Of a DNA stretch of 906 nucleotides, positions 1-906 are shown piece after piece (within the stretch, counting starts at the first letter, position 1; each line of letters begins with the position of its first letter). The notes below the pieces were generated by a model. The model did no database searches, was not told the origin of the DNA, and was given only the letters and a program-made list of their open reading frames with translations. The position numbers and the translations under genes are program-made. The DNA is from Escherichia coli (GTDB taxonomy: Bacteria > Pseudomonadota > Gammaproteobacteria > Enterobacterales > Enterobacteriaceae), in the NCBI RefSeq assembly GCF_003334385.1, contig NZ_QOWN01000142.1, one strand, 5' to 3'.

Positions 1-906
1 AATCCGGTCATAGTCCATTGCCTGTGTCAGCATGGAGGCATACAGGGGGACTTCTGCACGATAAGCATTTTCACTGCGCAGATACCAGCTCTCATCACTG
101 TCCCGGTTGAGGGAGTAGTTAAAGGCACCGGCCTGCAGCTTATTCCCCTGGATAAAGGCCCCTTCCTCCGTGGTGGCACCGTTAATGGCTTCCACCACCT
201 GAATACCCTTACCGCTGGTCGCCAGCCCCGACGCACTGTTGCCGGCGTTCACCAGGTTCAGGATGGTTTTTCCGGTTGCCCTGCCACCGTCAATGACCAG
301 TCTGTCAGCATTGTTCTGTGCCATATCCGGGCGTACACGCAGGCTGATGGTGCCATTCTGCCCGTTCAGGTTTTTCACTTTCAGGGTTGCCGGTACGAAC
401 TTCCCTGTGCGGGTGGAGGTGAAATGAATCTGTCCGGCATGGCTGAGGTCATCCACCACCGACTGCACCGTGGCGTTATCGGGAATATTCCAGGTGGCAC
501 CAGAGGCGAGAGTGACATTCGTGGGGTCAATGGCACCGTTCAGCACAGTGCTGCCGGTCAGCTTCAGGGCTGTACCGCGCTGAGCAATGACATCCGTGGT
601 GACGGTACTGTCGTTCAGCGTCAGCGTGCCTTCATTCAGGTTGACGGCTTTCTGGGTGAGTGTGGTGTTGCTGACAGTGAGTGTGCCACTTCCTGATTTT
701 TCCACGCTGCCGTTACCGGTGAGAGAGCCTCCCTGCAGGAGTGCATCGCCTTCACGGATGGTCAGGGTATCGTTGTTCACCGTCTTCCCGGAAAGGGTAA
801 GTATGGCGCCGTTATTCAGCGTGGTGGTGCCCGCCAGTGTGCCGCCCCTGGCGGTGAACAGTCCGCCATTTACCGTGGTATCCGTGGCCGTATCACCGGC
901 GTTCAG
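1..906 (-). CDS. flu: Antigen 43 (Ag43) family self-associating autotransporter adhesin, internal fragment partial at both ends (5' end of gene beyond position 906, 3' end beyond position 1); covers C-terminal passenger beta-helix, autochaperone-like region and start of translocator domain
   Basis: Seen in sequence: the minus-strand frame with codons 906..904, 903..901 ... 3..1 has no stop codon across all 302 codons. Its translation is LNAGDTATDTTVNGGLFTARGGTLAGTTTLNNGAILTLSGKTVNNDTLTIREGDALLQGGSLTGNGSVEKSGSGTLTVSNTTLTQKAVNLNEGTLTLNDSTVTTDVIAQRGTALKLTGSTVLNGAIDPTNVTLASGATWNIPDNATVQSVVDDLSHAGQIHFTSTRTGKFVPATLKVKNLNGQNGTISLRVRPDMAQNNADRLVIDGGRATGKTILNLVNAGNSASGLATSGKGIQVVEAINGATTEEGAFIQGNKLQAGAFNYSLNRDSDESWYLRSENAYRAEVPLYASMLTQAMDYDRI. 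Composition is Thr/Gly/Leu/Asn/Ser-rich with no Cys, and short T-L-T / L-N-x-G beta-strand and turn motifs recur, as in AIDA-I-type beta-helical passengers. Established knowledge (recalled, no search run): this stretch, notably ...HFTSTRTGKFVPATLKVKNLNGQNGTISLRVRPDMAQNNADRLVIDGG... and ...NYSLNRDSDESWYLRSENAYRAEVPLYASMLTQAMDYDRI, matches my recollection of E. coli Ag43. No in-window start or stop, so both ends are truncated by the window. Confidence 0.88.
   Translation of the reverse strand, partial: MNAGDTATDTTVNGGLFTARGGTLAGTTTLNNGAILTLSGKTVNNDTLTIREGDALLQGGSLTGNGSVEKSGSGTLTVSNTTLTQKAVNLNEGTLTLNDSTVTTDVIAQRGTALKLTGSTVLNGAIDPTNVTLASGATWNIPDNATVQSVVDDLSHAGQIHFTSTRTGKFVPATLKVKNLNGQNGTISLRVRPDMAQNNADRLVIDGGRATGKTILNLVNAGNSASGLATSGKGIQVVEAINGATTEEGAFIQGNKLQAGAFNYSLNRDSDESWYLRSENAYRAEVPLYASMLTQAMDYDRI

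Follow-up and report, generated by a model that had tools for sequence, protein, structure and literature searches.

Gene and domain layout of the window

The window, the whole 906-nt stretch that was analysed, can be assigned on sequence identity and modular architecture to agn43 (flu), the gene of the Ag43/Cah self-associating autotransporter. Frame 1 of the minus strand is open over all of positions 1..906, and the best database match to the full 906 nt (99.9%) is annotated agn43 in strain 118UI, where the gene lies at 2729-5848 of locus L001 and the window aligns at 4001-4906; the same annotation is found on matching sequence in thousands of genomes. A Pfam scan of the window returned AC_1 (E=3.7e-19), Pertactin (E=4.5e-12) and a weak match to AIDA (PF16168, residues 2-33, E=0.0012). 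AIDA is present in every complete-length homologue among the 120 listed, and ESPR, AIDA, AC_1 and Autotransporter domains are listed for the full-length homologues and their encoding contigs; the signal peptide and the beta-barrel translocator of agn43 fall outside the window. Plus-strand open reading frames of at most 90 aa were dismissed, being nested in the well-supported minus-strand gene. Self-association and cell aggregation have been published for Ag43a and K-12 Ag43 (PMC6668479, PMC8993888).

1..906, minus strand: internal part of agn43, codons 425-726 of the 1039-aa precursor (translation and database match)
526..906, minus strand: last 127 residues of the alpha-domain (Ag43 residues 425-551), most of the BL1 beta-helix (4KH3 identity and lag-19 autocorrelation)
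523..528, minus strand: codons D551-P552, presumed alpha43/beta43 processing site (end of the 4KH3 construct and established cleavage position)
109..462, minus strand: autochaperone domain (Pfam AC_1/Pertactin-like), window-protein residues 149-266 (Pfam scan)

Interval 526-906 encodes window-protein residues 1-127, that is Ag43 residues 425-551, and its protein is 100% identical to residues 377-503 of 4KH3 (127 aa, E=6e-66), the Ag43a crystal construct, whose C-terminal 127 residues, ending ...NGAID, it matches. Position 526 is the last base of the Asp551 codon, and D551|P552, from the established Ag43 literature, is presumably the alpha43/beta43 cleavage position. The Ag43 crystal constructs were designed on an empirically determined alpha/beta processing site (PMC8993888). 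BL1 is the 'bottom of the L' subdomain of the Ag43 alpha-domain, and the C-terminal arm of the passenger is a seven-rung three-stranded beta-helix (both PMC6668479, PMC8993888). Given the identity to 4KH3 and this published description of the fold, the interval would comprise the last seven rungs of the right-handed beta-helix; the earlier note, made from the sequence alone, was right to read a beta-helix here, a point already established. The window likewise falls, on its sequence, within the BL1 type (classes C1 and C3), in which BL is about 143 aa, more than 95% similar within the type and less than 30% similar to BL2 (PMC6668479, PMC8993888). The putative rung boundaries below were placed by manual stacking at a period of 19/20, in agreement with the autocorrelation, and not taken from crystal coordinates.

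850..906, minus strand: putative rung 1, window-protein residues 1-19, LNAGDTATDTTVNGGLFTA
793..849, minus strand: putative rung 2, window-protein residues 20-38, RGGTLAGTTTLNNGAILTL
733..792, minus strand: putative rung 3, window-protein residues 39-58, SGKTVNNDTLTIREGDALLQ
673..732, minus strand: putative rung 4, window-protein residues 59-78, GGSLTGNGSVEKSGSGTLTV
616..672, minus strand: putative rung 5, window-protein residues 79-97, SNTTLTQKAVNLNEGTLTL
559..615, minus strand: putative rung 6, window-protein residues 98-116, NDSTVTTDVIAQRGTALKL
502..558, minus strand: putative rung 7, window-protein residues 117-135, TGSTVLNGAIDPTNVTLAS, spanning the alpha/beta processing site

Periodicity of the protein and of its DNA

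The BLOSUM62 autocorrelation of residues 1-127 has its maximum at lag 19 (z=5.1), a value reached by none of 1000 shuffles, with a harmonic at lag 38 (z=3.0); the same analysis gave no periodic signal for residues 128-302 of the window protein. Seven peptide motifs had been listed as recurring at roughly 19-20 residues. All seven were found, starting at window-protein residues 23, 36, 47, 75, 94, 114 and 130, with successive spacings of 13, 11, 28, 19, 20 and 16 residues, so the 19-residue period stands but the listed motifs are not uniformly 19-20 residues apart; by manual stacking, five of them share one rung position and TLAGTTTL and TLTIREG lie at others.

At the DNA level, identity at a lag of 57 nt is 0.395, and codon-order shuffles give 0.299 (z=3.6, family-wise P=0.005); the check for periodicity beyond chance is thus positive at 19 aa and, against this one null model, at 57 nt. 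Shuffling synonymous codons with the protein held fixed gives 0.390, which indicates that the 57-nt signal wholly mirrors the amino-acid repeat: the periodicity claimed for the DNA exceeds codon-order shuffles but vanishes against protein-preserving ones, and in the synonymous-shuffle test the rungs are not more alike at synonymous sites than the protein imposes.

The heptamer CGTTCAG, which had been cited as an example of such repetition, occurs exactly at positions 363, 537, 612 and 900, and on the minus strand each copy reads as the in-frame codons CTG-AAC (Leu-Asn), confirming the positions and frame given for them.

363..369, plus strand: CGTTCAG copy, Leu180-Asn181, in the autochaperone domain and not at a passenger rung position
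537..543, plus strand: CGTTCAG copy, Leu122-Asn123, middle of rung 7
612..618, plus strand: CGTTCAG copy, Leu97-Asn98, rung 5/6 boundary
900..906, plus strand: CGTTCAG copy, Leu1-Asn2, boundary before rung 1, overlapping the 12-nt repeat at 894-905

In the manual stacking, the copies at 900-906 and 612-618 are the only two that occupy about the same rung position. Dinucleotide shuffles give 0.16 expected copies of CGTTCAG; 14% of the codon shuffles and 52% of the synonymous ones contain some 7-mer in at least four copies, and under such codon-aware shuffles the fourfold 7-mer is unremarkable. Exact direct repeats do not exceed 9 nt inside the interval or 10 nt across the window, lengths that codon shuffles equal; in the L001 and L002 passengers they extend to 11-14 nt, and the whole passenger holds 42-49 repeated 9-mers versus about 22 expected. 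Tandem Repeats Finder returned no tandem repeats in the window (0 rows, minimum score 30), and a generic repeat finder returned only imperfect families of 10-25 nt without a consistent 57-nt spacing. With a lag-57 identity of only 0.395, the window does not have the character of a tandem-repeat (slipped-strand) gene. Efficient RecA-mediated exchange in E. coli is generally cited as needing roughly 23-27 bp of identity, and the rung repeats, which reach at most 10 nt within the window and 12-14 nt within the passenger, are too short to suit RecA-dependent homologous recombination, for which about 25 bp or more would be required.

Length and mosaicism among alleles

Carriers were defined as the 2,400 complete genomes with interval 526-906, each at at least 90% nucleotide identity. 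At least 80% of the interval is covered in 2,390 of them (99.6%), all 59 of the full-coverage rows that were sampled along the ranking measure exactly 381 nt, and eight aligned BL1 alleles have no gaps in gene nt 1150-2178. Sliding-window identity between K-12 and Ag43a switches at gene nt about 880-940, and the short alleles regain high identity at gene nt about 2050 (window about 130); both of these class-level mosaic switch points fall outside the interval. Inside it, 71 of 136 informative-site pairs fail the four-gamete test (PHI-like permutation P=0.01), a pattern pointing to recombination between aligned alleles with length unchanged. A 32-nt divergent patch in allele L022 has no donor in other rungs or alleles, the best matches (26-27/46 nt) being at chance level, and inter-rung conversion was rejected as its source since only such matches occur elsewhere.

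The common length difference, 1039 versus 948/949 aa, maps to the interval and just downstream of it and corresponds to seven versus four rungs (PMC8993888). Long and short (BL2) forms share only 35-55% nucleotide identity across interval 526-906, and the origin of this difference is consequently untraceable.

Given that repeats are present in both protein and DNA, that a length difference equal to three rungs maps to the interval and its downstream flank, and that the rare deletions described below join repeat-equivalent positions, it is possible that the imperfect rung repeats drive intragenic homologous recombination and that unequal exchange of rungs is a main cause of agn43 mosaicism and length variation. 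However, this is very unlikely for the following reasons: the exact repeats fall well below the length for RecA-mediated exchange given above, similarity between rungs does not go beyond the level imposed by the protein, the class switch points lie at aligned positions with length unchanged, BL1 is of full length in nearly all carrier genomes, and the L022 patch has no donor in any other rung. Unequal rung exchange as the source of mosaicism is therefore largely contradicted. The recombination role proposed in the earlier note is, overall, partly supported: rung repeats as the cause of allelic mosaicism are not supported, given the outlying switch points, the length-neutral exchange and repeats of 9-10 nt; for length variation, the long/short difference does map here and rare deletions exist, but the interval is near-constant in BL1 carriers; and the allele alignment gave near-invariant length and class breakpoints outside the interval, together with exchange between aligned alleles inside it.

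Rare deletion alleles and their junctions

At 11 resolved in-frame deletion junctions the microhomology measures 2, 1, 0, 2, 6, 6, 0, 9, 12, 9 and 11 nt; the junction of P0061 (L011), for which the closest reference compared has 806 mismatches, was left out of the statistics. Six of the 11 have at least 6 nt, against a null mean of 0.85 nt and a null P(>=6 nt) of 0.0068 (binomial P=4e-11), and the junctions are thus enriched for short exact repeats, as in a microhomology-mediated deletion hotspot. Four of the six (9-12 nt) lie in rung-motif codons, and the far ends of the two 6-nt ones lie beyond the rungs. A link between the rare in-frame deletion alleles and short rung-motif repeats is supported by these junction sequences. 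Of 23 deletion variants, 12 have the length at which, among lengths within +/-9 residues, the local similarity of the two joined contexts is greatest, about 1.2 being expected by chance. Two of the junction repeats have a copy inside the interval.

861..871, minus strand: direct repeat AAATGGCGG(AC), third copy (gene nt 1308-1318), with codons for x-Asn-Gly-Gly
894..905, minus strand: 12-nt direct repeat TGAACGCCGGTG, right copy, with codons for (L/V)-Asn-Ala-Gly; junction of an in-frame deletion allele that lacks 128 aa, overlapping the CGTTCAG copy at 900-906

The other two copies of AAATGGCGG are at gene nt 1032 and 1146, upstream of the window. Each of the three possible pairs of copies is joined in a natural deletion allele (deletions of 38, 54 and 92 aa), with junctions in L015, L024 and L025 of 9, 9 and 11 nt microhomology; strain MEI003, a complete genome, carries the 54-aa deletion allele as an intact CDS of 985 aa. 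The left copy of TGAACGCCGGTG lies at gene nt 890-901 in MB50-type (L022-like) alleles. Compared with the L022 parent, L016/L017 have 4 mismatches overall, with 12 nt of exact microhomology and 21/26 identity around it, and strain LR-48, likewise a complete genome, has the exact junction of this 128-aa deletion. Of the 5,426 complete genomes searched, one has the 54-aa junction, six have the 114-nt junction, one has the 384-nt junction and none has the 276-nt junction. In both records inspected (of six genomes) the 114-nt junction sits in decayed agn43 pseudogenes. For the 384-nt junction only the single 100% match was counted; about 3,000 undeleted genomes also matched, at 90-93%, owing to the imperfect resemblance of the left site to the right one.

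Many of the deletion alleles were seen only once, in short-read or metagenome assemblies, most being cluster singletons on single Logan or ENA assembly contigs, and four, from SRA runs SRR3545447, SRR10513686, SRR8790945 and SRR22190667, match K-12 with 0-1 nt mismatch everywhere but at the deletion, which raises the possibility that they are artefacts of assembly collapse or sequencing error, or laboratory constructs, and uninformative on natural mechanisms. This scenario is highly improbable, given that the 54-aa and 128-aa alleles are intact CDSs in the complete genomes of MEI003 and LR-48, that the 128-aa allele occurs on 7 contigs, that identical junctions occur on differing sequence backgrounds, and that every deletion is in frame and in a normal genomic context; moreover, repeats of 0-12 nt would be too short to collapse a k-mer assembly.

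Microhomology cannot explain the five of 11 junctions with only 0-2 nt. For three of these (deletions of 52, 54 and 78 aa), the observed length is among the top three of 19 when lengths are ranked by local similarity of the joined contexts, so selection for foldable products may shape the alleles that are observed; the 78-aa deletion of P0041 is exactly four rungs by manual stacking, and the deletions of 30, 52 and 54 aa fall in a sub-rung register. Taken to its limit, such selection would account for the repeat register entirely, with endpoints falling at random and only in-frame, foldable beta-helix genes being kept. This is rather doubtful: the 6-12 nt of exact identity at six of the 11 junctions is not needed for selection at the protein level, every pairing of one 9-nt repeat has been used, and the 6-nt junctions of L012 and L013 join rung to non-rung sequence with loss of the autochaperone and are for that reason unlikely to have been selected for folding.

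Proposed explanation and its significance

The observations are very probably best explained jointly by rung repeats that are passive, by occasional microhomology deletion between them and by common variation that arises from aligned exchange. Each rung would re-use the strand/turn motifs x-N-G-G, T-L-T and L-N-x-G every 19-20 residues, and short DNA strings would recur because the rung-motif residues use a limited codon set; the DNA periodicity would thus be a passive by-product of the protein repeat and would not point to recent duplication or to conversion among rungs. Occasionally, as the junction sequences suggest, the repeats may act as microhomology for RecA-independent deletion, by replication slippage or illegitimate recombination, the products being rare in-frame alleles that lack 38-128 residues. 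Class mosaicism would reflect homologous exchange of aligned cassettes, the stem (SL) versus the elbow-bottom-autochaperone block (EJ-BL-AC), between alleles or paralogues, with switch points outside the interval, and ordinary inter-allelic recombination would also occur inside the interval without change of length. The seven-versus-four-rung difference between BL1 and BL2 would be old.

Beyond this joint explanation, it may tentatively be suggested, with doubt prevailing, that the rung-motif codons (for example the three copies of AAATGGCGG and the two of TGAACGCCGGTG) are a small set of fixed microhomology hotspots at which in-frame deletions of rungs, whole or partial, recur independently across allele backgrounds, feeding selectable short-arm adhesins. 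If so, hotspot deletions would at low frequency generate adhesins whose elbow or bottom arm is shortened, these would be open to selection for altered aggregation, and length variation would be built into the beta-helix repeat, separately from phase variation. Ag43 phase variation is known to work through Dam/OxyR at the promoter, not through repeats.

Ag43 is a major aggregation and biofilm adhesin of E. coli, and the tightness of clumping differs among allele classes. Subdomain shuffling and rung counts are, like the fold and the 19-residue periodicity, already published, and the periodicity finding itself adds nothing new; the junction evidence is the sole increment, and a small one, namely that a few rare natural alleles appear to have lost rungs between 9-12-nt repeats encoding rung motifs. 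The terms 'recombination', 'deletion' and 'mosaic' are absent from the Ag43 diversity literature as far as it was text-searched. Should the deletions recur and yield functional products, adhesin length would also vary by this minor additional route; the same evidence cautions against crediting agn43 mosaicism to rung repeats.

Comparison with known systems

Ag43a of uropathogenic CFT073 (4KH3, class C3) and K-12 Ag43/Flu (class C1) both carry BL1, like the window, and nt 1273-1653 of the K-12 flu gene are identical in DNA to interval 526-906. Both proteins are L-shaped three-stranded beta-helices with a seven-rung C-terminal arm (PMC8993888), as in the window, and there is no difference of substance from either. 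Cah and the Ag43 of EDL933 and UTI89 (7KOH; classes C2 and C4; BL2) share the family, the architecture and the genomic neighbours, and from gene nt about 2050 on, the translocator of Cah-type alleles shows over 90% identity. In contrast, their nucleotide identity across interval 526-906 is 35-55%, their BL2 has four rungs versus seven, with a published BL length of 90 aa versus 143 aa in BL1, and their alpha-domain is 69 aa shorter (PMC8993888).

The imperfect repeats of AIDA-I and TibA (PF16168) have the 19-residue rung period in common with Ag43, but the BL rungs of Ag43 are more degenerate than its stem rungs, and only the first rungs of the window reach the AIDA model. Unlike surface-protein genes with variable repeat number, agn43 is not a contingency locus; it has no tandem DNA repeats, and its events are very rare in populations. 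Its likeness to RecA-independent microhomology deletion systems is in the in-frame deletions bounded by direct repeats of 6-12 nt.

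Results

Rung periodicity of the encoded protein

All 906 nt of the window translate as a single open reading frame on the minus strand, and comparison with 5,426 complete E. coli genomes places the window within annotated agn43 genes, with a top match of 99.9%; strain 118UI carries a gene of 3,120 nt, of which the window covers codons 425-726. The encoded protein comprises two relevant features:

Window 526-906, minus strand: coding stretch matching PDB 4KH3 (window-protein residues 1-127)
Window-protein residues 149-266, minus strand, downstream of the interval: autochaperone domain AC_1 (E=3.7e-19)

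The first is 100% identical to residues 377-503 of 4KH3, the Ag43a alpha-domain, and the match runs to where the crystallised construct stops (...NGAID). Given that this end is encoded at window 526, the lower edge of the interval 526-906 coincides with the alpha/beta processing site, which we take from the Ag43 literature to lie between D551 and P552. The identity to 4KH3 shows that the earlier note was right to read a beta-helix here, a fold that is already known. The seven peptide motifs it named are all present, and the rung periodicity it saw in the protein is borne out by BLOSUM62 autocorrelation: over residues 1-127 the top lag is 19 (z=5.1, reached by 0 of 1000 shuffles), with a harmonic at lag 38, and the same analysis of residues 128-302 gave no periodic signal. 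Further peaks over residues 1-127, at lags 7, 26, 45 and 52, suggest a repeat shorter than a rung, with one strand motif used again on more than one face. Because of this sub-rung repeat the gaps between the motifs are uneven (13, 11, 28, 19, 20 and 16 residues) rather than the 19-20 residues supposed; five of the seven share one position when the sequence is stacked manually in seven rows of 19-20 residues.

Periodicity and repeats in the DNA

Periodicity is also seen in the DNA. At a lag of 57 nt the identity reaches 0.395, whereas codon-order shuffles yield 0.299 (P=0.005); shuffling synonymous codons with the protein kept, however, gives 0.390, and the DNA periodicity is thus imposed entirely by the protein; at synonymous sites the rungs are no more alike than the protein demands. 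The heptamer CGTTCAG, offered as the example, does occur four times, at the positions the earlier note gave, each copy encoding Leu-Asn in frame, with a naive dinucleotide expectation of 0.16. Codon shuffling produces some 7-mer with at least four copies in 14% of cases, synonymous shuffling in 52%, and the example is statistically weak after allowing for codon usage and its post-hoc choice. No tandem repeats were found in the window, and the maximum length of an exact direct repeat, 9 nt within the interval and 10 nt across the window, matches the mean of the shuffles in both cases. The 10-nt repeat, CCGGCGTTCA (plus strand), lies at window 242-251 and 896-905, encoding V/L-N-A-G in the autochaperone domain and in rung 1; this pair is used by none of the deletion alleles examined.

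Allele mosaicism

Alignment of six alleles places the length difference between 1039-aa and 948/949-aa proteins inside the window, at Ag43a residues ~470-595. By sliding-window nucleotide identity, K-12 flu and the Ag43a type share 60-66% identity over gene nt ~200-880; at gene nt ~880-940, which is the SL/EJ boundary and lies upstream of the window, this switches to 93-100%. The short alleles are 35-55% identical over the interval and regain at least 92% identity at gene nt ~2050 (window ~130). These two switches place the interval centrally within an exchanged EJ-BL-AC cassette, away from its edges. The downstream edge of this cassette lies at window ~100-150 (gene nt ~2040-2060), where the autochaperone domain ends and the short (Cah-type) alleles rise from ~70% to 92-100% identity.

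Among alleles with the seven-rung BL1 subdomain, 71 of 136 informative-site pairs inside the interval fail the four-gamete test (PHI-like permutation P=0.01), and one allele, L019, changes partner near gene nt 1401-1404. The MB50 allele (L022) carries a dense 32-nt divergent patch at gene nt 1319-1350 (window 829-860), turning LFTARGGTLAG into QLTAHGGILEG, in a BL1 otherwise 95-98% identical; none of the rungs and alleles compared offered a donor for it. BL1 alleles therefore recombine inside the interval by ordinary exchange between aligned alleles, with length conserved. The rung repeats had been put forward as a plausible cause of allelic mosaicism, a link that these data do not support: the repeats are too short, the rungs show no additional likeness in their DNA, and the breakpoints are aligned and length-preserving.

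Length constancy and deletion alleles

The interval is carried by 2,400 genomes, in 2,390 of which at least 80% of it is covered at one place; the 59 full-coverage matches drawn from along the ranking, at 93-100% identity, all measure exactly 381 nt, and eight BL1 alleles show zero gaps across gene nt 1150-2178. A link between rung repeats and length variation, as the earlier note proposed, is supported only for a few rare in-frame deletion alleles with junctions on 9-12-nt rung-motif repeats.

Ninety complete-looking Ag43 cluster representatives were screened against their nearest reference for single in-frame indels of at least 4 aa, which were found in 31; eight deletions begin inside the interval and others end inside it or at its edge. 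At the protein level, local likeness of the joined contexts peaks at the observed length in 12 of 23 deletion variants, compared with lengths within ±9 residues (~1.2 by chance), and one K-12-identical variant loses exactly four rungs (78 aa) by manual stacking. Junctions were mapped on the DNA of 12 variants and resolved in 11, with exact microhomologies of 2, 1, 0, 2, 6, 6, 0, 9, 12, 9 and 11 nt. In-frame deletions placed at random in this gene by simulation average 0.85 nt, with P(≥6 nt)=0.0068, and the six junctions of 11 with at least 6 nt have a binomial P of 4e-11. Given that the other five are nearly without microhomology, selection for products that can still fold, or simple chance, may also play a part.

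The 9-mer AAATGGCGG (x-Asn-Gly-Gly) has three copies, at gene nt 1032, 1146 and 1308 (the last of them window 863-871), and every pairwise deletion between them is known as a natural allele, of 38, 54 or 92 aa. A 128-aa deletion allele is flanked by the 12-nt TGAACGCCGGTG, whose right copy (window 894-905) overlaps the CGTTCAG at 900-906; it differs from its MB50-type parent at four positions and shares the divergent patch. Identical junctions occur on differing backgrounds (P0043 and P0066, 128 aa; P0039 and P0045, 54 aa), the alleles differing immediately on either side, which suggests that deletion has recurred at these repeats or that the junctions later spread by recombination.

Deletion alleles with repeat-bounded junctions are rare in populations: among the 5,426 genomes the exact 54-, 38-, 92- and 128-aa junctions occur 1, 6, 0 and 1 times. 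The 54-aa allele of strain MEI003 is an intact 985-aa CDS, the 38-aa junction lies inside decayed pseudogenes in both records inspected, and many other deletion alleles are singletons from short-read assemblies.

Several variants were noted individually. Four different in-frame flu deletions (L007, L008, L013 and L014; 78, 52, 198 and 204 aa), in genes that have 0-1 nt mismatch to K-12 outside the deletion and a normal chromosomal context, come from SRA runs SRR3545447, SRR10513686, SRR8790945 and SRR22190667, respectively, and may have arisen by laboratory evolution, by strain engineering or spontaneously. In strain UTME-8 an isolated 113-nt agn43 fragment (L018 3001-3113), 100% identical to window 785-897, adjoins decayed pseudogenes of type II secretion; it has no surrounding agn43 gene and is apparently what a large deletion in the island left behind. 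The 978-aa Cah proteins P0099 and P0100 carry a 29-aa tandem duplication, HLGHDNNGGIARGATPESSGSYGFVRLEG, at residues ~662-719 between autochaperone and barrel; this length variant has nothing to do with the rungs of the passenger.

Discussion

From their junction sequences, the rare deletion alleles fit microhomology-mediated, probably RecA-independent deletion, in which the 9-12-nt rung-motif repeats would serve as the microhomology for in-frame loss. The common seven-versus-four-rung polymorphism in this region is too diverged for a mechanism to be assigned.

The words 'recombination', 'deletion' and 'mosaic' are absent from both of the Ag43 diversity papers searched. The passenger is divided into SL (stem), EJ (elbow) and BL (bottom) subdomains, and classes C1-C4 arise from SL1/SL2 shuffled against EJ1-BL1 and EJ2-BL2 blocks (Ageorges et al. 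2019, PMC6668479), BL1 being 143 aa and BL2 90 aa (2023 genome-wide study, PMC10058404). Crystal structures of the C-terminal helix show seven rungs in Ag43a against four in the UTI89 and EDL933 proteins, which are 69 aa shorter (Vo et al. 2022, PMC8993888). Given these structures and class studies, the fold, its periodicity, the difference in rung number and the mosaicism were all already known.
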